Origin: Candidatus Methylomirabilis sp.
GTDB lineage: Bacteria; Methylomirabilota; Methylomirabilia; Methylomirabilales; Methylomirabilaceae
DNA length: 11,450 nt
Assembly (NCBI GenBank): GCA_041498975.1
Contig: JBGQJI010000079.1
Span: 1 to 11,450, forward strand
Direction of reading: 5' to 3'
Below are positions 1,310 to 10,653 of the stretch, one piece after another. Numbering within the stretch: the first letter of the stretch is position 1; each line of letters begins with the position of its first letter. Under the pieces are notes generated by a model. That model was not told the DNA's origin. It searched no databases and saw nothing but the letters and a program-made list of their open reading frames with translations. The translations under genes and the position numbers were made by a program.

Positions 1310-2833
1310 TTGCGGATTTTCCCCGCCGCCCAGGAGCTCCTCGACTTCAGGGGAGACGCCCTCATCCTTCCACTGGCATTAGGGGGTGGACCTCTTCGAG
1401 GACCTTTAAAAAGGATCGACGCTGCTCTTCACGGAGCCATCACTCACGCCATTCGTCGGAAGGCCTTTCGCGGTCAACCCTCCGAACGCTACGTCCTACG
1501 CCCCGGCGGCCGACTTGGTGTCGAGCAGCTCTTGCTTCTCGGCTTCGGCAAAGCGACTGAACTCACCCAGGATCGTGTTCGACAGGCCGCGGCCGAGGCG
1601 CTTCGCTACCTCCGGACCCTCAAGTGCCGAAGGGTCGCGATCCCTCTTGATCATACCCACTGGGGAGGTCTCGCACGGGAGACAGTCGCCCAGGGAATCG
1701 CGGAAGGGGCGCTTCTCGGCCTCTACCGATTCGATGCCTACAAGGCAAAGGGGAGCGGTGACAACGACCGGGAAATCAGATCGCTCGAGGTTCTTTGCAT
1801 GGACCGTGAAGCGGTGCGGCCAGTCAAGCGCGCCATAGAGCGAGCCGAGGTCATCGCGCAGGCGACCAATCTGGCACGCGATCTGATCAATGAACCGGCC
1901 AACATCCTGACGCCGGCGGAGCTGGCCGCCAATGCCAGGGGGGTGGCTCGCCGATACCGCCTTGGGATCGAGGTGCTCGATCGGAGCGCGATGCAGCGCC
2001 TGGGAATGGGCGCCCTGCTCGGCGTCGCCCAGGGGAGCGCGAACCCGCCTCAGCTCATCATCCTCAGGCATCGAGGAGGCGATGGCCGAGGAAAACCGGC
2101 ACTCGGGCTGGTGGGAAAAGGAGTCACGTTCGACGCCGGCGGCATCTCCATCAAGGCGAGCGAGGGGATGGAGACGATGAAGGGCGACATGGCCGGGGCG
2201 GCGGCGGTCCTGGGCGCCATGATGGGCATTGCGGCCCTGCGGCTGCCGGTCCATGTCGTGGGGGTGATCGCGGCCGTCGAGAACATGCCGAGCGGCACAG
2301 CGCAGCGGCCGGGCGACATCGTCCGGGCGATGGACGGCACCACGATCGAAGTGATCAACACCGACGCCGAGGGGCGGCTGATCCTCTCGGACGCGCTCTG
2401 CTACACCCGTCGCCTCGGGGTCAGGCGTTTGGTGGATGTCGCCACTCTGACGGGCGGGGTCGTGGTGGCCCTCGGCTCAGTCCGAACGGGATTCTTCTCC
2501 AACGATCGAGCGCTGGCTCAGCAGGTGCAGGCGGCGGGAGAGGCGACGGGTGAGAAACTGTGGGAGTTGCCGCTCGACGATGAATACGAAGAGCTGATCA
2601 AAAGCGACTGCGCGGACCTCAAAAACACGGGAGGAGGGAAGAAAGCCCCGGCAATTGGAGCGGCTCGGTTCCTGAAACACTTTGTGGGTGAGGTGCCATG
2701 GGTCCACCTCGACATCAACGGCACGTCACTCCAGGAGAAGGCTCACGGCTATCGGCCAAAGGGAGCAACCGGCGTTATGACCCGCACGCTCATCCACCTG
2801 GCAATGAACCTCGCGGCTGAGCGCGAGCGCTGA
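1310..2833 (+). CDS. pepA: Leucyl aminopeptidase, peptidase family M17 (start uncertain: ATG 1166, GTG 1274 or TTG 1310)
   Basis: Motifs LVGKGVTFDAGGISIK, MKGDMAGAA, ENMPSG.AQRPGDIV, NTDAEGRL, DVATLTG and WVHLDI; all M17 metal ligands and the catalytic Lys/Arg are present. M17-like N-terminal sequence starts near (M)RIFPAAQELLDFRGDALILPL at 1310. Confidence 0.95.
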   Translation: MRIFPAAQELLDFRGDALILPLALGGGPLRGPLKRIDAALHGAITHAIRRKAFRGQPSERYVLRPGGRLGVEQLLLLGFGKATELTQDRVRQAAAEALRYLRTLKCRRVAIPLDHTHWGGLARETVAQGIAEGALLGLYRFDAYKAKGSGDNDREIRSLEVLCMDREAVRPVKRAIERAEVIAQATNLARDLINEPANILTPAELAANARGVARRYRLGIEVLDRSAMQRLGMGALLGVAQGSANPPQLIILRHRGGDGRGKPALGLVGKGVTFDAGGISIKASEGMETMKGDMAGAAAVLGAMMGIAALRLPVHVVGVIAAVENMPSGTAQRPGDIVRAMDGTTIEVINTDAEGRLILSDALCYTRRLGVRRLVDVATLTGGVVVALGSVRTGFFSNDRALAQQVQAAGEATGEKLWELPLDDEYEELIKSDCADLKNTGGGKKAPAIGAARFLKHFVGEVPWVHLDINGTSLQEKAHGYRPKGATGVMTRTLIHLAMNLAAERER

Positions 2834-2851
2834 CATTGCCCCATGCGAGGC

Positions 2852-2904
2852 GTAGGGGCGCTGCTTGCTGCGCCCCCTAGGGGCAGGGCAAGCCCTGCCC
2901 CTAC
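2852..2904. repeat. Inverted doublet of GTAG-family REP sequences between convergent genes; possible bidirectional terminator or mRNA stabiliser
   Basis: GTAGGGGCGCTGCTTGCTGCGCCC on + (2852-2875) and GTAGGGGCAGGGCTTGCCCTGCCC on - (2904-2881). Each is a GTAG foot plus hairpin; they are separated by 5 nt. Confidence 0.85.
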
Positions 2905-2942
2905 AAATTCCTCAAAGGGTCCGCCGGTCTGACGACTCCCCG

Positions 2943-3716
2943 CTACTTATCCTTGAACGTCGGCTTCCGCTTTTCGAGGAAGGCGCGCATTCCCTCCTGG
3001 GCGTCCTCGGTCAATGCCGTCGCAGCCATGACCTCCATCGCGTAGGCGTATGCCTTCGGCTGATCCAGGTCGATCTGCGCGTAGAACGCTTGCTTGCCTA
3101 TCCCCTTGGAAAGGCCGCTGCCACGCGTGGCCCGCTCCAGTAACAGGCGGGTCTCCTCGTCCAGGCGATCGCCAGGGACGACTTTGTTGACCAGCCCCCA
3201 GGCCTCGGCCGTTTTTGCGTCGATGGGGTCCCCCGTCAGCAGCATCTCGAGCGCCCGTTTCTGGCCAATCGAGCGGCTGAGAGCGACCATCGGCGTCGTG
3301 CAAAACCACCCACCCTTCCCGCCCGGTGTGGCGAAGGAGGCGTTTTCAGACGCCACCACGAGGTCGCAGGAAGCCACGAGCTGGCAACCGGCCGCTGTGG
3401 CGAGCCCGTGGACCTTCGCGATCACCGGCTGCGGAATCGACTGGACGAGTGTCATCAGCTCGGTACAGGTCGCCAGGAGGGTCCGCATAGCACTCAGGCC
3501 TCGTCCGAGGATGTCGGCGAAGTCGTGGCCCGCGCAAAAGACGGGGCCGACCCCCGCGAGGATGACCCCCCTCGACTTGCCGGCACCCACTGCCCGGAAG
3601 GTTTCGATCAGCTCCTCCATGTGATCCTGCGAGAGCGCATTGCGCCGCTCCGGCCGGTTCATCACCACGGTGGTGAAATCACCGTCCTCATGACGCTCGA
3701 CATTCCTGCCCGCCAT
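2943..3716 (-). CDS. Enoyl-CoA hydratase/isomerase (crotonase) family protein, ECHDC3-like subgroup
   Basis: Motifs NRPERRNALS, FCAGHD, PVIAKVHGLATAAGCQLVASCD, EMLLTGDPIDA..A..WGLVNKVV and EGMRAFLEKRKP. AAGGAGG RBS upstream of the ATG. Confidence 0.93.
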   Translation of the reverse strand: MAGRNVERHEDGDFTTVVMNRPERRNALSQDHMEELIETFRAVGAGKSRGVILAGVGPVFCAGHDFADILGRGLSAMRTLLATCTELMTLVQSIPQPVIAKVHGLATAAGCQLVASCDLVVASENASFATPGGKGGWFCTTPMVALSRSIGQKRALEMLLTGDPIDAKTAEAWGLVNKVVPGDRLDEETRLLLERATRGSGLSKGIGKQAFYAQIDLDQPKAYAYAMEVMAATALTEDAQEGMRAFLEKRKPTFKDK

Positions 3717-3794: not shown

Positions 3795-3992
3795 TCATCG
3801 CAGCCTGAGTGACTTGAGAAAGTACCTGAGATAGATGGCGAACGCGCAGGCGGCGATTGCAGATATGATACCACGGACAAGCGCCCACACGCCACCCGGG
3901 TCAGGGTAGTTCCGGATCTCCCAGCCCGCATAGAAAAGGAAGAAGACGATCGCGGTCGTAATAAGGATCTTGTGGGCGGTCACGATCGACAC
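3795..3992 (-). CDS. Small hypothetical membrane protein, 65 aa, two predicted TM helices
   Basis: GTG start preceded by GAGAGGT. Two hydrophobic stretches (ILITTAIVFFLFYAGW; IISAIAACAFAIYL) and a basic C-terminus. Fills the gap between co-oriented genes. Confidence 0.7.
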   Translation of the reverse strand: MSIVTAHKILITTAIVFFLFYAGWEIRNYPDPGGVWALVRGIISAIAACAFAIYLRYFLKSLRLR

Positions 3993-4034
3993 AGGATACC
4001 TCTCACTCAGCCACGTCTGTCCCGGCGGAGGACC

Positions 4035-5627
4035 TCACGATTCTGCTTTCCCAGCCGGCTCTTGGTCAAGGCTTGCACCATTCAGGGGCGAGTCATTGCG
4101 GCTGCGCCCCATGTAGTGGAGCAGGATCAAGAGAGCTGCGGTCAGGCCATACATGAGGGCGAACTCAGGGGCTGCGGCGATCCCGAATTTGTTGTGCACG
4201 CCCGTGGGGGTAAGATCATAGGCATGGATCAAGCCAACCATCGACAGGACCGCTGCGGTCGTAGCCCACCACGCTGCTGTCAGGAATTGACGGTCGATTA
4301 CAAACACGAGGATAGCCGCGAGGACCATGGAGGTCAGCAGGAATCCCTGATTCAGGGCGATGACGCCGTGAATGTAGAAGTTGCTGCCGAAGGCCGGCGC
4401 GACCTCGAAGAGGCTCTTCCCTGCGGCGCGAAGGCTGGTCTCAACGATCAGGAGCGCCCAGGCCGCAAGGGACGGAATCAGCCCGAAGGCGACGGCCAAG
4501 GCATGACTCTTGGGCACTTCCTGGAATGCCTGTGCCGTGATGATGATCCCGATCCAAAGCAAGATTCCAAGAGTCGCCTCGAGCGGGACGACCTTGAGCA
4601 CGAGCGTGATTCCCCCGAGCAGGCACAGGAGGGTCACTACTCCTCCGTTGAGGATCGAATAGCCCGCCCGTGCGCCCATGGCCTTCCAGCCAGGATGTCC
4701 GATGTAGATCGTGGTCGGAAAGGCGCTGCCGAACAACGCCGCCGCGAGCGTCCCGATGCCATTCGCCAGCAGCGAAGGTTTTGTCTCGTAGCGGTCCCCG
4801 GCCGCTTCCGCGCTTTCGAGGTTCTGCAGGGAGCCAATCACGTTGAAGAGCCCCATGGGGAAGATCACTGTCATGTATTTCCAGCCCATCGGGCTCGTCA
4901 GCAGGGCGAACAGATGTCCCGGCACCGGAACCGGGGGATAGATGGCCGGGATATACGGTTCTCCGGAGGGCTCAAAGTACGGCAGGCCCATCGCGCGAAG
5001 TATCCACGCCACCGCCACGCCCGTCAGCACCGCCACGAGTCCTCCTGGGAGGGCCAACGGCAGCCGGACATGAGAGGCGTAGGTGATAAGAATCATCATC
5101 ATGGGAAAGATCGCAATCGCTGGCGAGGCGAAGATCTGAAAGATGAACCCCATGGCGATGAACGTGATGGCGACTCCGGCAAGGGCAGAGAGCAGGGCGG
5201 CGCGAGGTGTGTGGCGCCGCAACCAATCTCCGACGAACGCGCCGGCCGTTTCCATGACGCCGCTCATCAGGCAAGCGAAGAGCCCGGCTTGCCACACGAG
5301 CGTTGGATTCCTGGTCTCCTGATAGATGGGTCCCATGATCAGGAAGACGTAGGCGAGGAGACTTGGAGTGTTGATCCCGTAAGGAAGCGCGGTCACATCG
5401 TCGCGACCTGTCTTCCTCATGAGCTGCCTGGCCTGCCACGCATAAAAGAGGTTGCCCACCAGAATCGAGACCGCTGCTCCGGGCAGGATGCGACCAGTGA
5501 TCAGCTCGGGCGGGAAGCCGCAGACATGCTGGCACAGCACCGCGATAACCATGAGCTGCAGCAGGTTGTCGATGAACAGTCCGAAAAAGCCGTCGATGTC
5601 GCCGCGGACAAACCACCGGGGTTTCAT
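4035..5627 (-). CDS. NCS2-superfamily (AzgA-like) nucleobase permease
   Basis: 530 aa with more than 12 hydrophobic segments. Motifs GDIDGFFGLFIDN, DVTALPYGINTP, PRAALLSALAG, QNLESAEAAGD.Y and PTTIYIGHPGWKAMGARAGYS. Confidence 0.88.
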   Translation of the reverse strand: MKPRWFVRGDIDGFFGLFIDNLLQLMVIAVLCQHVCGFPPELITGRILPGAAVSILVGNLFYAWQARQLMRKTGRDDVTALPYGINTPSLLAYVFLIMGPIYQETRNPTLVWQAGLFACLMSGVMETAGAFVGDWLRRHTPRAALLSALAGVAITFIAMGFIFQIFASPAIAIFPMMMILITYASHVRLPLALPGGLVAVLTGVAVAWILRAMGLPYFEPSGEPYIPAIYPPVPVPGHLFALLTSPMGWKYMTVIFPMGLFNVIGSLQNLESAEAAGDRYETKPSLLANGIGTLAAALFGSAFPTTIYIGHPGWKAMGARAGYSILNGGVVTLLCLLGGITLVLKVVPLEATLGILLWIGIIITAQAFQEVPKSHALAVAFGLIPSLAAWALLIVETSLRAAGKSLFEVAPAFGSNFYIHGVIALNQGFLLTSMVLAAILVFVIDRQFLTAAWWATTAAVLSMVGLIHAYDLTPTGVHNKFGIAAAPEFALMYGLTAALLILLHYMGRSRNDSPLNGASLDQEPAGKAES

Positions 5628-5822
5628 AGGTCTGGTATCTTACCGTGAGGGGAGCCGGAAGTCGAGAACCTCTTCCTTGCGGGGACAGCCGCCCGAATGC
5701 ACCGCACGGGCTTCGGCTATCGTCGAAACCGAATCTTGTCTCCGATCTTGAGGATAAACAGTTGGGCGGCTGACCGCACCCGTCGGGGTGGGAGATAGGG
5801 GATTTCCGCCTGCTGGGCAGGA

Positions 5823-6902
5823 CTACTCGAACAGGCGGAGTTGGGCGGTGCTCGGAGGTCGGCGGAACGATGCCGTGGAAAGGCCAGGCCCCTTTCCCTC
5901 TATGCCTGCCTTCCGGCAGGCGAGGGTGAACATTGCGCCAATCTGTCTGGCGAAAATGCCCTCGCCCCGCATTCGCGAGACGAAGCGCGAGTCGTTTAAT
6001 CTGCCGCCACGGATCGCGCGAATCCGATTCAGTACCTTCTGTTTCCTGTCGGGGAAGTGTTGTGTCAGCCATTGCTCGAACAACGGCGCCACCCCGTGCG
6101 GCAGGCGTAGTGGAATATGGCCCGCAAACCGCGCTCCCGCGCGAGCCGCCGCAGCGATGATCGAGGGCAGTTCATGATCGGTCAGCCCTGGAATGACCGG
6201 CGCGACCATCACCCCTGCGGGCACTCCGGCCTGCGTCAGGGCCTCGATCGCGGCGAGGCGACGGGCAGGATGGGAAGTCCGTGGTTCCATGATGCGGGCC
6301 AGACCGCCATCCAGGGTCGTGACGGAGAGGAACACGGCGGCCGCCCCGTAGCGGGCAAGCTCCCCGAGCAGGTCCAGGTCTCGTGTGACAAGGTAGTTCT
6401 TGCTGACAATGGCCAGGGGATTACGGAACTCTACGAACACCTCGAGACACCGTCGCGTGAGCCCCAGCCGCCGCTCGACCGGTTGATAGGGATCGGTGAC
6501 GCCGCTCATGGCGACCACCTGAGGTTTCCAGCTCGGGGAAGACAGCTCTCGCCGCAGGAGGTCCGGCGCGTCCTCCTTCACCAGGATCTTCGTCTCGAAA
6601 TCCAGGCCTGCGGAAAACCCGATGTATTCGTGGGTGGGGCGCGCGTAGCAGTAGATGCAGCCGTGCTCACAGCCCCGGTAAGGGTTGACGCTGGCATCGA
6701 ACCCGACATCGGGGCTGTCGTTGTACGCGATGATCGACCGGGACGGGTCTTTCAGAAACTGCGTGGCCGGGGAGGGGTCTTCAGGATCGGCCCACTCCCC
6801 GTCGCGCTCATAGCAGATTTTCTCGAACCGATTGACTGGATTTCCGGTCGCGCCCCGGCCATGGACCGGATCTCGTTGCGTGGTGCCCTTTCTGGATAGC
6901 AT
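5823..6902 (-). CDS. PA0069/Rv2578c-family radical SAM protein (spore photoproduct lyase-like)
   Basis: GRGA..NP.NRFE N-terminus, NDSPDVGFDASVNPYRGCEHGCIYCYARPTHEY (CxxxCxxC), SGVTDPYQPVER, APVIPGLTDHE, SRMRGEG and a QLRLFE C-terminus. Confidence 0.93.
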   Translation of the reverse strand: MLSRKGTTQRDPVHGRGATGNPVNRFEKICYERDGEWADPEDPSPATQFLKDPSRSIIAYNDSPDVGFDASVNPYRGCEHGCIYCYARPTHEYIGFSAGLDFETKILVKEDAPDLLRRELSSPSWKPQVVAMSGVTDPYQPVERRLGLTRRCLEVFVEFRNPLAIVSKNYLVTRDLDLLGELARYGAAAVFLSVTTLDGGLARIMEPRTSHPARRLAAIEALTQAGVPAGVMVAPVIPGLTDHELPSIIAAAARAGARFAGHIPLRLPHGVAPLFEQWLTQHFPDRKQKVLNRIRAIRGGRLNDSRFVSRMRGEGIFARQIGAMFTLACRKAGIEGKGPGLSTASFRRPPSTAQLRLFE

Positions 6903-6934
6903 AGGACATCCTAATCGGGGCCATACTGTTCACC

Positions 6935-6982
6935 GCCCTTCCCTCAACCTCCCCCGAGGGCAGAAGGAAGGGATGAGAGGGC
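6935..6982. repeat. Degenerate purine/pyrimidine palindrome related to the 1243-1283 repeat type; possible terminator for the fusion gene
   Basis: CCCTTCCCTCAACCTCCCCCGAGGGCAGAAGGAAGGGATGAGAGGG, with CCCTTCC/GGAAGGG and CCCTC/GAGGG complementarity. Lies immediately 3' of the stop at 6987. Confidence 0.4.
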
Positions 6983-6986
6983 CGCA

Positions 6987-9900
6987 TTACTCCATCAGCT
7001 TGACGACTTGGCCGCGCAGGACCATGGTGCCGCGCTGATTTGTTGCCTCGGTTTCGATTGGGACGATCGGCTGGCCCTTCCCCTTCTGAGATCGTCTGAT
7101 CTGGTCGTGCGGCGGGACGCTGGCGGTCATCGTCAACACGTCCCCCGCCTGGATCGGTCCGGCAAACTCATGCAACGTCGCGCTCAACAGCAGGTGGCCC
7201 GGAGAGCTCTCTGCCGACGTCATGGCCATCGTCCCCAGGGCGAGCAGGGGAACCAAGTGATCGGGGCCAGGTCCGCCGAAGAGCGCTCGCGTGGCCCGAA
7301 TGAGTTCTTCGCTGATCGTCCTGGAAAAGGTCTGCCGGCGGGGGCTGCCGGGATCGGTGAAGTCATAGACCTTGACCGGAATCGAAGGAGTGACGTCCTT
7401 CGCCCATTGCTTGAGCCAGTTCAGATCGTCGCCTGCAGGCGTGGCGGCGCGAGTCGCGGCCAGCGGCTTGATGGTTGCGACCCCTTCACATACCAGCTTC
7501 CCGTCTTGATTGAGCGCCCGTACGCGAACCCGCCCCCTGCCATGGTCGAGGAGCTGCTCGACATCGACCACCGGCGTGATGGTGTCGGCGAAGTAGACCG
7601 GCGCCTTGAAGTCGGCTTCCAGCGACGCCAGCGCGTAGCCGGGAATGAGCCTCTCGAGGCTGGCCACCAGGCTGGAGACCGTCCACAGGCCGTGCGCCAC
7701 CATCCCCTTGAAACGCGACCCTTCGGCGTATGGCCTGTCCAGGTGGTACCTGTTCCGGTCGCCTGAGGCCTTGGCAAACGCCTGCACCATCCAGTCGCGG
7801 ACGGTAACGGCGTACCCCATCAACCTCTGGCCTGGAAACAGCGCCGTGCCGGTTTTTTCGGTCCCCCCTGGTCTGAGGGCCAGGAGCAGCCGCTCGCGGG
7901 CCGTGATGTAGCGTGTGGCCTCCTCGGCGGTCAGGCGCTTGGCCTTCAGCGCCCGCTCCAACTGGCGGTAATAGATTCGCGCCGTCGCGGCATCCACCAG
8001 CTCGGGTTGATTGGTTACCGGATCATTGTAGGCCACTGCTCCAAGGTTGCGTTCCTGATCCGCGGTGGCGTAGAGCTCGAGGATCTCGAGCGCCCGCTCC
8101 ACGCAATTGATCCAGCGCGCCTTGTAGGCATTCCACCCGTGGTCCGTTGGCCCCGCCGGGCGGTCGCCGCCACGCGGCGGATTCATAATCTCGTCAACCC
8201 GCGCAGCCTGTTCTACCGTCACCAGCTTGCCGTGGAACCCCAGGTTAGCAGCGAAGAGGGTTTCGGCCTCAGTCTCGGCCGGCTCGCTGATCCCGTCGAT
8301 GGCGTCGATATCGGCCTGAGCCGTGGCCGCGATGAGCGCGGAGTGGTAGTAGTAATACCCTCTGGTGCTCGGATCGGTCGGGCTCTCCTTGGGCATCCCA
8401 GCGGGGAGATCCAGAAAGAGCCACATCATTCGTCGGCTGGCCGTCGCGATGGCGAGAGCGTGGGACTCGATCGCCTCCGGGCTGCTGAGGCGCGCGCCAA
8501 GGGCAAAGGTACCAACCGGCAGAGCCAACTCAATCTCGATCTCTGTCAGCAGTCCGTCGGCGCGTCGAACGAGATCGGGCTGATCCACCGAGGGAAGGAT
8601 GACCGCGCCCGCAAGGTCACGCAGGAGGCGCAGCAGTTCCAGAAGCTGTTGATGTGCCCGGGGCTGATGCAGATCGAGCTGCAGGGCGATCACCTTCCCT
8701 GATAGGTCCGTCCGGCCGAGAACCCGAGCCACCTCGCGTTGGGCGTCGAGCCCGCCGCTGCCCAGCAGATGCTCGGCGTCGATGATGATCATATCGGCGA
8801 CGGAGGCCAGAGCCCGCCGAATCGCGTCTGCGTTGCCACCGTCCGCTGCGACGACCGAGCGGGCGAGGATGATAGGCCGCGGGACAAAGACCTTTGGCGG
8901 CAAGACCGGTTTCTGCTCGGCCGCCAGCCGCTTGAGCAACTCGAGATCGAAGGGCACCAGCTCCGGGTACGTCAGCCGCTTGCGGATCACCGGGGCGAAT
9001 TCATGCTGATGCCGCGCAATTCCCTCGATATGCGCCGGGTGCACGCTCCACTTCCGATGAATCCCGATAGCGATCGCGCGGATCGTGTCCACCTCAGTAT
9101 CATCCGCGTTCAACTTCGGGGTGATCCCCGTCCCAGCCACCTTGCCGGTCGCCCGTGCGGCCTGTACCAGCCTGAGCAGCGGATACCGCATGTAGGTGTA
9201 CTGCTCTTGCTGGATGACGCTGCGGCCGCCGGTCGCGGCCGTGTAATCGACGATGCCGAGGTTCCCCTCCTCCACCTCCGGCGCGGCGGACAGGATCTGC
9301 TCCACCGAGAGGATGGCGCCTGGCAGCTCGGTCAGCACAAAGATCTTGTGCCGGCCCAGCACCCAGCCACGGTCCTGCTGGATGGCGCGGAGGATCTGGC
9401 CGGTAACGCGCACGTCGTCCGGCCCCTCGACCTTCGGCATGTAGATGCCGTCGATGAGGTCGCCTACCTCCCGGATGACGTGATAGTAGTCGCCTGCCGT
9501 CCACTTCGTCCGGAGGTTGTTCGGCCTGATCAGGATCATCTGATCGTCGGGAAACCGCTCCTTGAGCTGGAATCTGTCGCTGGCCGGGAGGAACTGCTGT
9601 TCGAGCTGCTCACCCTTGCCCTGGGGAAGCGCGTGCGCCTTCAGAAACTCCAGCTCGTCCTTCGTGAGCGGCTGGCCACGGAAGGCCCTGATCAGGAGCA
9701 CAATCACCTTCCGAGCGATCTCCTTGCGGGTGGTTGCGACCGCGTCTTCCAGGTCGAGGAGCAGGATATGGGCGCCCGACTGCGCGGCCTTGAGCATGAA
9801 GGTCCAGTTATCGCCCGGGAAGACGTGCTCAATGGTTCGCGGCTTGTATTCCCATGCCAGCCGCAGCGTTGCCTTCTCGCGAGAGGCTGCGGGATCGACC

Positions 9901-10040
9901 CGCTGCATCGCATGCCACCGCTCCATCACCTCGGCTTCTGCCTGGGCCGCATCTCCTCCGAATGCCGCCACCACGGTGGCCCAGGCCTGGCCCAGTGTTT
10001 CCGTCTCACCTGCAGGTGCACTTTCCTGATACACAGCCAT
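6987..10040 (-). CDS. Multidomain protein, 1017 aa: two CitE/malyl-CoA-lyase-like (HpcH/HpaI) barrels plus two MaoC-like hot-dog domains
   Basis: GGAGG at 10048-10052 before ATG 10040 (the ORF-track start at 10163 overlaps the upstream gene). Barrel 1: LDLEDAVA, IRPN, MPKVE, LTE, GIVDY, KWSVHP. Barrel 2: LPSV..PDLVRRADGLLTEIE, DAIDG, GFHGK. Lid: GAVAY..LVDAA. MaoC: FAKASGDRNRYHLD..F.GMVAHG..FKAPVYFADTI. Second hot-dog: FAGPIQAGDVLT..ATNQRG. Confidence 0.88.
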   Translation of the reverse strand: MAVYQESAPAGETETLGQAWATVVAAFGGDAAQAEAEVMERWHAMQRVDPAASREKATLRLAWEYKPRTIEHVFPGDNWTFMLKAAQSGAHILLLDLEDAVATTRKEIARKVIVLLIRAFRGQPLTKDELEFLKAHALPQGKGEQLEQQFLPASDRFQLKERFPDDQMILIRPNNLRTKWTAGDYYHVIREVGDLIDGIYMPKVEGPDDVRVTGQILRAIQQDRGWVLGRHKIFVLTELPGAILSVEQILSAAPEVEEGNLGIVDYTAATGGRSVIQQEQYTYMRYPLLRLVQAARATGKVAGTGITPKLNADDTEVDTIRAIAIGIHRKWSVHPAHIEGIARHQHEFAPVIRKRLTYPELVPFDLELLKRLAAEQKPVLPPKVFVPRPIILARSVVAADGGNADAIRRALASVADMIIIDAEHLLGSGGLDAQREVARVLGRTDLSGKVIALQLDLHQPRAHQQLLELLRLLRDLAGAVILPSVDQPDLVRRADGLLTEIEIELALPVGTFALGARLSSPEAIESHALAIATASRRMMWLFLDLPAGMPKESPTDPSTRGYYYYHSALIAATAQADIDAIDGISEPAETEAETLFAANLGFHGKLVTVEQAARVDEIMNPPRGGDRPAGPTDHGWNAYKARWINCVERALEILELYATADQERNLGAVAYNDPVTNQPELVDAATARIYYRQLERALKAKRLTAEEATRYITARERLLLALRPGGTEKTGTALFPGQRLMGYAVTVRDWMVQAFAKASGDRNRYHLDRPYAEGSRFKGMVAHGLWTVSSLVASLERLIPGYALASLEADFKAPVYFADTITPVVDVEQLLDHGRGRVRVRALNQDGKLVCEGVATIKPLAATRAATPAGDDLNWLKQWAKDVTPSIPVKVYDFTDPGSPRRQTFSRTISEELIRATRALFGGPGPDHLVPLLALGTMAMTSAESSPGHLLLSATLHEFAGPIQAGDVLTMTASVPPHDQIRRSQKGKGQPIVPIETEATNQRGTMVLRGQVVKLME

Positions 10041-10116
10041 ACGTCCGCCTCCACATGGCGTGACTCTCACAAATCGGTCCCAATAAATTGACGAGCCTGC
10101 CAGCTCTCCCCGCTCC

Positions 10117-10653
10117 TTACACCGCTCCAGCCACGCCCCCGAACAGAGTGAACAGGAGGGCAAGCGTAAGTAGCTGCACGATCCAACCGATCACGCAGAC
10201 TCCTACCGCCCTCAGCGTTCCGGTGTAGTCCAAGGCCTGTCTGACTGCGATCACCATCGCCACCAGCATCCATACCGATGCCGCCACAAAGACCAGCCAG
10301 GTAAGGCCGGGGATGATGCCCAGCACCCGGATCACCCCAGGGGCGCTGGAGAAGCCGATCGAACGCAACAGCTCACCATAGTCCGCCTTGGTCTGAGGCT
10401 CCGGCAGGAGTCGCGTGCCGATCCAGTACGTGAGGAAGGCCCAGACGTACCATCCAACCAGCGCTGCGATCGTCCCTACGACAAGTCCTCCGATCCCTGT
10501 GTGGGCTGCTGCACCCACCCCAGCCGCCAGACTCGAGAGGAGTACCACAATCGTCGCCTGTCCAAGGGCGCCCCGATCGGCCTCCACCTCTTCGTAGAGG
10601 TTCGCGTCCAGCTTGGCGGCCCGGATCATCCGCTCCCACAGACGTTCCATCAT
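10117..10653 (-). CDS. YIP1-family membrane protein, about 178 aa
   Basis: RMIRAAKLD..LYEEVEAD..A..QA..VV.LSSLAAG N-terminus, ELLRSIGFSSAPG, AMVIAVRQALDY; about five TM helices. GGAG elements precede the tandem ATGs at 10653/10650. Confidence 0.8.
   Translation of the reverse strand: MMERLWERMIRAAKLDANLYEEVEADRGALGQATIVVLLSSLAAGVGAAAHTGIGGLVVGTIAALVGWYVWAFLTYWIGTRLLPEPQTKADYGELLRSIGFSSAPGVIRVLGIIPGLTWLVFVAASVWMLVAMVIAVRQALDYTGTLRAVGVCVIGWIVQLLTLALLFTLFGGVAGAV

Follow-up and report, generated by a model that had tools for sequence, protein, structure and literature searches.

A conserved lyase and hydratase fusion of Methylomirabilota with a proposed role in the ethylmalonyl-CoA pathway

The stretch of DNA analysed here, which we call the window, is an 11,450-nucleotide contig of a Candidatus Methylomirabilis sp. 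assembly (JBGQJI010000079.1; the window is the whole of contig C79), and the source genome is 2.68 Mb in size and 84.9% complete. The minus strand of the window carries a gene for a 1017-residue protein (6987..10040) in which two CitE-like barrels, a lid and a double hot dog are joined in one chain. We propose, with a probability of roughly 0.6, that this protein combines the mesaconyl-CoA hydratase and the beta-methylmalyl-CoA lyase of the ethylmalonyl-CoA (EMC) pathway as a single bifunctional chain. The C-terminal double hot dog would hydrate mesaconyl-C1-CoA to beta-methylmalyl-CoA by means of Asp761 and His766, and the first barrel (barrel 1) would split this product into glyoxylate and propionyl-CoA and possibly act on malyl-CoA as well, as Mcl1 does. 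In the proposed barrel 1 site, Mg2+ would be held by Glu238 and Asp265, next to Arg172 and an Asp683 contributed by the lid, while the second barrel (barrel 2), which looks catalytically dead, would occupy the place of the neighbouring subunit in a CitE trimer and bear that lid. From the domains, conserved residues and genomic associations observed, we infer the substrates, the direction of the reactions and any channelling between them.

Gene, domain layout and candidate active sites

A single frame is open from 6987 to 10163 on the minus strand, the likely start being the ATG at 10040, with a GGAGG ribosome-binding site (10048..10052, minus strand) 7 nt 5' of it. The whole gene (6987..10040) thus comprises 1017 codons and a stop (6987-6989), as supported by the frame, the start call and the full-length relatives. 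A preliminary description of the window had divided this reading frame into five parts, and all five of its ranges lie within a few residues of the boundaries found here. Full-length relatives of 950-1026 aa, with at least 98% query cover and 60-100% identity, make up 42 of the 62 database relatives (the window's own protein counted); the other 20 comprise 13 proteins of 716-758 aa without hot dogs, one of 1544 aa and six fragments. The gene is present, in some cases cut by a contig end, at 19 loci of species-representative genomes, nearly all labelled Methylomirabilis, Methylomirabilota or NC10. In the DNA run X1, unitigs with at most one difference per tiling piece tile positions 6800-10250, and one of 1609 nt (7941-9549) spans both barrel junctions. 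The worry of the preliminary description that the fusion might be an assembly artefact can therefore be set aside, given the full-length relatives and the unitigs that tile the gene. The gene is real and conserved, and is an uncharacterised variant of known enzymes.

Three Pfam families match above their cut-offs: HpcH_HpaI (PF03328), with 88.1 bits over the whole protein in three stretches (cut-off 25), MaoC_dehydratas (PF01575) at residues 743-829 (47.3 bits, cut-off 27) and FAS1_DH_region (PF13452) at 949-1007 (27.6 bits, cut-off 22). We aligned an AlphaFold2 model built from 43 relatives (pLDDT 85.7, pTM 0.86) with solved structures by VIA. Residues 64-346, which form barrel 1 without a lid, match the CitE barrel 1sgj (Z 21.4, root-mean-square deviation (rmsd) 2.0, 228 residues aligned), and residues 382-703, barrel 2 with the lid, match a malyl-CoA lyase subunit over its whole extent, lid included (5ugr, Z 27.6, rmsd 3.7, 291 of 323 residues aligned). 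Residues 730-1017 form a double hot dog (4e3e, Z 24.6; 2bi0, which is Rv0216, Z 24.5; 8hgn, Z 24.1). Malate synthases of types A and G and the haloarchaeal type align from about residue 57-61 to 693-722, taking in barrel 1 and ending in the lid; one example is the alignment to 3cv2 (Z 19.8, rmsd 4.3, 337 residues).

On this basis the gene can be divided as follows, all on the minus strand. An N-terminal helical extension (residues 1-64; 9849..10040), with three helices in the model, has no family match and is not part of canonical CitE or Mcl proteins. It is followed by barrel 1 (residues 65-346; 9003..9848), a putatively catalytic TIM barrel of the CitE/malyl-CoA-lyase type according to Pfam, sequence matches in the PDB and the superposition, which carries an insertion of ~50 residues (~117-166). 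Barrel 1 lacks a lid after its C-terminal end; instead, a linker with one helix in the model (residues 347-381; 8898..9002) leads to the degenerate CitE-like barrel 2 (residues 382-625; 8166..8897), which alone scores 36.7 bits against HpcH_HpaI. The lid (residues 626-725; 7866..8165), a helix, beta-hairpin and helix, is delimited by the model and by conservation. The MaoC hot dog predicted to be catalytic (residues 732-862; 7455..7847) is identified by PF01575 and by its match to the PhaJ structure 5cpg (E 2.1e-13), and the second hot dog (residues 895-1017; 6990..7358), without a hydratase motif, by PF13452 and the superposition of residues 730-1017. Identity to a clade of more distant relatives (the 65% clade) is ~76% in barrel 1, 77% in the lid, 62% in barrel 2 with the lid and 60% in the hot dogs.

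Judged by alignment, the catalytic set of CitE and malyl-CoA lyases is kept in barrel 1 only. PMC3832036 describes Glu44/Asp45, Arg76, Glu141/Asp168 and a lid Asp299 of the Rhodobacter sphaeroides enzyme as conserved in CitE-like enzymes and malate synthases, and all five barrel residues of this set are present in barrel 1. In a HMMER alignment to 4l9y, E98, D99, R172, E238 and D265 align with E44, D45, R76, E141 and D168 of this enzyme (MCL-R), respectively; they are invariant in 43 sequences and are kept in the fused homologues of 37-43% identity and in the split forms. By this alignment, the E98-D99 codons (9744..9749) encode the 'DLED' pair that would hold Mg-bound waters, the R172 codon (9525..9527) the counterpart of Arg76, and the E238 (9327..9329) and D265 (9246..9248) codons the putative Mg ligands, all on the minus strand. 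The solved sequences nearest to barrel 1 are malyl-CoA/beta-methylmalyl-CoA lyases (5ugr, E 2.2e-12; 4l9y; 4l7z), and an NCBIfam malyl-CoA lyase model matches at residues 187-313.

The best matches to the NCBIfam citE/RipC models fall instead on residues 393-622, that is, on barrel 2. The preliminary description had counted two CitE barrels; both are present where it placed them, but the second is no second lyase as far as can be judged from its residues. Compared with 5ugr, barrel 2 has Gln in place of Arg ('ALQ' vs 'IRIN') and 'DVEG' in place of 'DLED' ('DAEH' in the window), so that the Arg and the Asp of the Glu-Asp pair are lost from the five-residue set. An Asp is retained at the Asp168 position (D544), and the counterpart of Glu141 could not be placed with certainty. 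The degenerate positions vary among clades, and barrel 2 shows the lowest conservation in the protein. According to PMC3832036, the Arg is conserved across the whole CitE-like superfamily. Barrel 2 is thus probably non-catalytic, and it appears from the model that its role is to carry the lid that caps barrel 1.

The lid is the most conserved part, with 72 of 105 columns invariant among nine sequences. Its proposed catalytic base, D683 in 'ELVDAATAR' (codon 7992..7994, minus strand), is invariant in 17 of 17 sequences, and the DAATA stretch is identical to residues 447-451 of Escherichia coli malate synthase A (3cuz_A; MEDAATAEIS vs LVDAATARIY here), in which we take Asp447 to be the catalytic base. 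According to PMC3832036, this lid residue is Asp in lyases and malate synthases and Glu in the Mcl2 thioesterase group; here it is Asp, not Glu, in all 17 aligned sequences. The predicted single-chain model suggests that the lid lies over barrel 1 and is related to barrel 2 as a swapped lid is to its own barrel. Since barrel 2 with the lid corresponds to a whole Mcl subunit, and barrel 1 with the lid to the span of a malate synthase, the two barrels would mimic neighbouring subunits of the CitE trimer. Together, the model and these alignment ranges suggest an intramolecular version of the lid swap in CitE trimers, in which the barrel 1 site would be closed within one chain, barrel 2 carrying the lid, rather than by exchange between subunits. 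A sequence search of the PDB and Pfam with the lid by itself gave only repeated weak matches to the designed 'Cake' beta-propeller, each stretch at E ~100, which were taken as chance.

In the first hot dog, D761 and H766 lie in the stretch 'SGDRNRYH' (dyad codons 7743..7760, minus strand) and align with the PhaJ motif of 5cpg and 1iq6; we take these positions to be the catalytic hydratase residues. They are invariant in the relatives of 60-100% identity and in the distant fused forms, down to 37% identity. The fold match of the module to the mesaconyl-CoA hydratase MeaC (8hgn, Z 24.1, rmsd 3.2, 263 residues aligned) ties with those to Rv0216 and 4e3e.

The likeness of the lid to that of malate synthase A brings up another possible function, that of an apparent malate synthase or thioesterase, in which barrel 1 would condense glyoxylate and acetyl-CoA and the hot dogs or barrel 1 would hydrolyse the malyl-CoA. 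Consistent with this, the hot-dog fold is common in thioesterases, the module has weak 4HBT matches (E 0.036-0.24), weak matches to MS_TIM-barrel (E 0.13) and DUF6986 were also found, and some split paralogues are kept despite a lost hydratase motif. However, the hydratase Asp and His are invariant in every fused form, a gene of the malate synthase A type (175 bits; 3cux, E 4.9e-67) is present elsewhere in the source genome, and the lid residue is not the Glu of the Mcl2 group. We regard this function as very improbable.

Genomic associations and the pathway assignment

The proposed hydratase and lyase function in the EMC pathway draws on an operon, on co-occurrence with Ccr and on fusions. 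In a genome of family f2 (G022), one strand carries Ccr, a FabH-like protein, an acyl-CoA dehydrogenase, a B12 acyl-CoA mutase and, ~30 bp downstream of the mutase, a fused homologue that is 37-43% identical over the aligned pieces. Ccr scores 548 bits against TIGR01751 (cut-off 378.55) and the mutase 726 bits against TIGR00641. In another distant genome (G004), a methylmalonyl-CoA epimerase is found near the fused homologue (TIGR03081, 164 bits, cut-off 115). The FabH-type ketoacyl synthase III within the ccr-to-mutase operon (G022:C64; L036 3152-4204) may form acetoacetyl-CoA that feeds the pathway.

Co-occurrence was surveyed in 66 genomes of the order, with the gene type called at E<=1e-30 and Ccr above the TIGR01751 cut-off. 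Ccr was present in 20 genomes and the gene type in 24; both were found in 17, Ccr only in 3, the gene only in 7 and neither in 39. The three Ccr-only genomes are 80, 81 and 93% complete, the last having six other PF03328 matches, and the seven gene-only genomes are 68-95% complete, one of them with Ccr fragments. Leaving out the unpublished genomes G034 and G044 changes the counts (both/Ccr only/gene only/neither) to 16/3/7/38. Restricted to the genus of the window, the survey gives 4/2/1/13, with neither gene in eight genomes that are 99-100% complete. The gene thus accompanies Ccr in some genomes of its own genus only, but in all 14 genomes of a sister genus.

Fusions with enzymes of the same kind were found by a profile search of 1.84 billion representatives, which returned 32 proteins at E<=1e-30. 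For example, P0104 (2974 aa) joins a B12 mutase, a B12 domain and an acyl-CoA dehydrogenase to the four-part module, and P0105 (2640 aa; labelled by NCBI as an Omnitrophota metagenome-assembled genome (MAG)) joins the module to a Ccr-like domain; the module in these two is 45-63% identical to the window protein. In P0119 and P0122 a dehydrogenase is accompanied by matches to the hot dogs and barrel 1 alone. Altogether, chains of 2.1-5.5 thousand residues (P0104, P0252, P0105, P0109, P0119) join the module, or barrel and hot-dog parts, to acyl-CoA enzymes, the partner domains being B12 mutase, acyl-CoA dehydrogenase, Ccr-like and acyl-CoA ligase. In the smaller P0125 and P0130 (630-665 aa) the hot dog comes first and there is a single barrel. 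The preliminary description knew of no characterised enzyme of this architecture. The variant is indeed uncharacterised, but fusion as such is not unique, since related CitE/hot-dog fusions exist elsewhere (P0104, P0105, P0125, P0130).

The modules also occur as separate genes. Residues 728-1017 have standalone counterparts of 366-388 aa with 50-58% identity. A metagenome contig (L028, 5087-8867) carries two adjacent genes, of which the upstream one encodes a lid (lid') with a double hot dog and shows 45% identity to residues 630-1013; the other, after a gap of 296 bp, encodes 755 aa with both barrels and a lid and shows 62% identity to residues 18-711. This order recurs in G024:C7 (L032 1320-4972), G036:C63 and G028:C35, and in at least two genomes, G024 and G027, the split-type barrel gene coexists with a complete fused gene. 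Hot-dog forms of 366-377 aa are without the SGDRNR stretch, which forms of 380-439 aa retain. The split pairs have two lids for two barrels, and some of the motif-deleted hot-dog partners persist. In the preliminary description, separate genes in relatives were expected to indicate an artefact; adjacent separate genes do exist, but the expectation fails, as these pairs are paralogues in reverse order and not a broken gene. That they coexist with the fused gene in the opposite order argues for functional coupling. Fused or not, the modules stay together.

In the source genome, Ccr is encoded at G000:C14:25116-26285 (562.6 bits, cut-off 378.55). The ccr, dehydrogenase and mutase genes of this C14 cluster are 82, 80 and 71% identical to their G022 counterparts and are followed by a PhaJ-like single-hot-dog MaoC protein of 194 aa; the best match of the genome to the G022 FabH-type gene is on another contig, outside the cluster. 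Two further mutases are present, one beside an epimerase-like gene. The gene in the window accounts for all PF03328 matches over the cut-off (35.9 and 36.4 bits), and it encodes the only double hot dog identified among four PF01575 matches, with a match on C18 left aside.

Taken together, the operon, the co-occurrence and the fusions point to the step after methylsuccinyl-CoA dehydrogenase, namely the hydration of mesaconyl-CoA and the cleavage of beta-methylmalyl-CoA. The latter compound is common to Mch and Mcl1, and MaoC hydratases yield the configuration of (S)-malyl-type esters. The suggestion of the preliminary description that consecutive hydratase and lyase steps are coupled in one chain gains support from the same three associations, with the proviso that barrel 2 probably adds no lyase. 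Of its example enzyme pairs, genomic context favours mesaconyl-CoA hydratase with beta-methylmalyl-CoA lyase of the EMC pathway.

Several findings weigh against this assignment. Of the three distant genomes examined, G022 alone shows the operon link; Pfam recognises nothing in the reading frame upstream of the gene in G004, and the G006 contig breaks off within the gene. Among members of the clade to which the window belongs the gene never adjoins ccr, the two being 131 kb apart on one G033 contig and on separate contigs in the window's genome, and the 65% clade shows no such linkage either. As identity to the operon-linked homologues is only 37-43%, a drift in function is possible. The operon dehydrogenase (385-398 aa) scores under all NCBIfam cut-offs, and it is therefore not shown to be a methylsuccinyl-CoA dehydrogenase. 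Family f3 alone, with counts of 9/0/5/1, is uninformative, and the Fisher p of 1e-7 overstates the co-occurrence, which comes from three related clades whose kinship inflates any p-value. The lyase equivalogs NF041626, NF038242 and TIGR01588 give 36.5, 74.1 and 75.2 bits against cut-offs of 500, 375 and 443.4. On the hydratase side, the MaoC domain is nearest by sequence to PhaJ-type crotonyl-CoA hydratases (5cpg, E 4.8e-18 with a profile; 1iq6), the NCBIfam scan at E<=1 had no mesaconyl-CoA hydratase model among its matches (the library may hold none), and the comparison of PF01575 proteins leaves aside the match in a 473-aa frame on C18.

The nearness to PhaJ could mean that both halves act in the EMC pathway at non-consecutive steps, the hot dogs as an (R)-specific crotonase of the CroR type and barrel 1 as a beta-methylmalyl/malyl-CoA lyase, with some other protein as the mesaconyl-CoA hydratase. 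However, the C14 cluster already holds the 194-aa PhaJ-like protein, which fits the crotonase role; PhaJ is a single hot dog, and the module here is double, like MeaC. The G022 gene moreover follows the dehydrogenase and the mutase, where a mesaconyl-CoA hydratase is next needed, and no other double hot dog with the MaoC motif was identified among the four PF01575 matches, C18 left aside. A division of the two activities between separate steps is, in our estimate, improbable.

The low equivalog scores, all far under their cut-offs, would also fit a hydratase/lyase pair for a new substrate (e.g. another 3-hydroxy-3-carboxyacyl-CoA), with the link to Ccr reflecting shared ecology. The 50-residue insertion and the 64-residue N-terminal extension have no assigned role, and the gene stands alone in the window's clade. 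As the operon, the co-occurrence and the fusions all point to EMC enzymes, we consider such a substrate unlikely.

A further alternative is suggested by the RipC/Ccl model, which is among the best NCBIfam matches (74.1 bits), and by the citramalyl-CoA lyase 8khl (Z 20.6). The protein would then be an itaconyl-CoA or mesaconyl-C4-CoA hydratase and (S)-citramalyl-CoA lyase, degrading itaconate or another C5-dicarboxylate to pyruvate and acetyl-CoA independently of the EMC pathway. The catalytic residues are equally compatible with this chemistry, and the source genome has four family III CoA-transferase matches with a sub-threshold likeness to succinyl-CoA:mesaconate CoA-transferase. Both lyase matches, however, involve the degenerate barrel 2, and the closer relatives of barrel 1 are malyl-CoA lyases; RipB/Ich reaches only E 0.17; no CoA-transferase lies beside the gene at any locus examined; and itaconate degradation would not account for the association with Ccr, mutase and dehydrogenase. 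Such a degradative role is unlikely.

The bifunctional EMC enzyme thus remains our preferred reading: the pathway role is well supported but unproven, and the pseudo-barrel is structurally unusual. A more far-reaching version, which we hold tentatively and at somewhat less than even odds, is that the protein represents a new architecture in the CitE superfamily, a single-chain pseudo-oligomer whose dead barrel serves only to return the lid to barrel 1, that beta-methylmalyl-CoA is both made and cleaved on the protein, and that the gene marks an unrecognised EMC pathway in some nitrite-dependent methane oxidisers.

Neighbouring genes and further occurrences

We looked for a conserved operon in close relatives, but none of the neighbourhoods is informative. 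Relatives of at least 78% identity share DUF3124-Yip1 upstream, and one of them, L001, also has the radical-SAM, permease-like and crotonase genes downstream; in the 65% clade the neighbours are instead NUDIX, EndoIII, HAD and transglutaminase-like genes. Phosphoglycolate salvage by the upstream HAD hydrolase of the 65% clade was rejected, its phosphoglycolate phosphatase score being 74.7 bits against a cut-off of 180; its best match is the beta-phosphoglucomutase family (139.7 bits, under the cut-off of 153.35). Directly downstream of the fused gene in the window is a PA0069-family radical SAM gene (5823-6902, minus strand; NF033668, 467 bits, cut-off 360), which is syntenic only in L001. Further along, two long reading frames overlap (3972-5648, plus strand; 4035-5627, minus strand). 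The minus frame (530 aa) is the real gene, being 86% identical in L001 vs ~60% for fragments of the plus frame; its protein has no Pfam or NCBIfam match, and a protein atlas places it with NCS2/AGZA-type permease clusters (score 0.99).

Elsewhere in the source genome, the locus G000:C81 (L030, 2784-10525) carries an IclR/BhcR-like regulator, two tandem family III CoA-transferases, an acyl-CoA ligase and a second IclR-like regulator. The CoA-transferase loci C81 and C68 were rejected as partners of the fused gene, with no lyase or hydratase nearby and all scores under cut-off. Replacement of the Calvin cycle by a serine cycle with the EMC pathway was likewise rejected: 18 of the 19 remaining genomes of the genus encode RuBisCO, carriers of the fused gene among them. 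RuBisCO was not found in the source genome, at 84.9% completeness.

Near-identical DNA is present in sediment metagenomes, in 24 runs (X1-X24) from 23 studies, 12 of the runs having at least half of the sampled words. In X19, a run from an RNA library, contigs 90-99% alike were found, one of 1046 nt (29 differences) lying over the MaoC domain, lid and barrel 2; this is not proof of transcription, and bins without cover in this run carry no information. A 3-kb contig in a Nitrososphaera (archaeal) MAG (L014) encodes residues 5-397 at 72% identity (1886-3070), probably by a binning error rather than transfer. The orthologues in G030:C113, G031:C80 and G034:C71, otherwise full length, each have one in-frame stop (TAA, TGA and TAG), which may reflect sequencing errors or decaying copies.

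Comparison with known systems

Our literature search on this fusion, or on the EMC pathway in NC10/Methylomirabilota, found nothing relevant by title or abstract. Natural and synthetic routes of CO2 fixation and acetate assimilation, such as the EMC pathway, the 3-hydroxypropionate bicycle and engineered cycles, rely heavily on Mch and Mcl. A natural one-chain Mch/Mcl with a built-in lid would be of interest to enzymologists and pathway engineers, and could show how an active site that depends on oligomerisation is made self-contained by means of a pseudo-enzyme domain. Nitrite-dependent methane oxidisers are usually described as Calvin-cycle autotrophs; if the assignment is true, a subset of them and their relatives would be capable of acetyl-CoA assimilation and mixotrophy, and the patchy presence of the gene and Ccr suggests that this capacity varies between close relatives. 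Even if the function is wrong, a conserved dead barrel with a hyper-conserved lid is an unexplained structural solution.

The lyase part resembles Mcl1 (4L9Y/4L9Z of R. sphaeroides, 5UGR of M. extorquens and 4L7Z/4L80 of Chloroflexus) in its TIM barrel with a Glu-Asp pair, Arg and Mg-binding Glu/Asp, and in a helix-hairpin-helix lid with Asp. According to PMC3832036, known Mcl proteins form hexamers of trimers in which the subunits exchange lids. Here, in contrast, there are two barrels, the second degenerate, and one lid after barrel 2 that apparently caps barrel 1 in cis in the model. The N-terminal extension of 64 residues, the 50-residue insertion and the fused hydratase are further differences, as are NCBIfam lyase scores of 36-75 bits against cut-offs of 375-500. 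The hydratase part shares the double hot dog of MeaC (8HGN), 4E3E and Rv0216 (2BI0) over 253-263 aligned residues (Z 24.1-24.6), with the Asp/His motif. Identity to these is only 14-16%, and the module here is covalently joined to a lyase. In double hot dogs the usual Pfam order has the PF13452-type half before the MaoC half; in this module the order is reversed, with the motif-bearing MaoC half ahead of the PF13452-type half.

RipB and RipC (Ich and Ccl) offer a parallel for a MaoC-type hydratase and a CitE-type lyase acting in sequence on a C5-dicarboxylyl-CoA, but these are separate proteins encoded in an operon with a CoA-transferase; in our protein the RipC-like match is on the degenerate barrel and RipB matches at E 0.17. 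Malate synthase A (3CUZ/3CV2) shares the DAATA motif and a C-terminal lid that closes its own barrel in cis, over 335-337 aligned residues (Z 19.3-19.8, rmsd 4.3); unlike our protein it has neither a second barrel nor a hydratase, and it hydrolyses the thioester. The closest parallels for the fusion are the Omnitrophota-type giants P0104, P0105 and P0252, in which related CitE-like and double hot-dog parts stand in one chain with EMC-type enzymes. In P0104 and P0105, however, the whole module is embedded in multi-enzyme proteins of 2.6-5.5 thousand residues, and in P0125 and P0130 a leading hot dog is followed by a single barrel.

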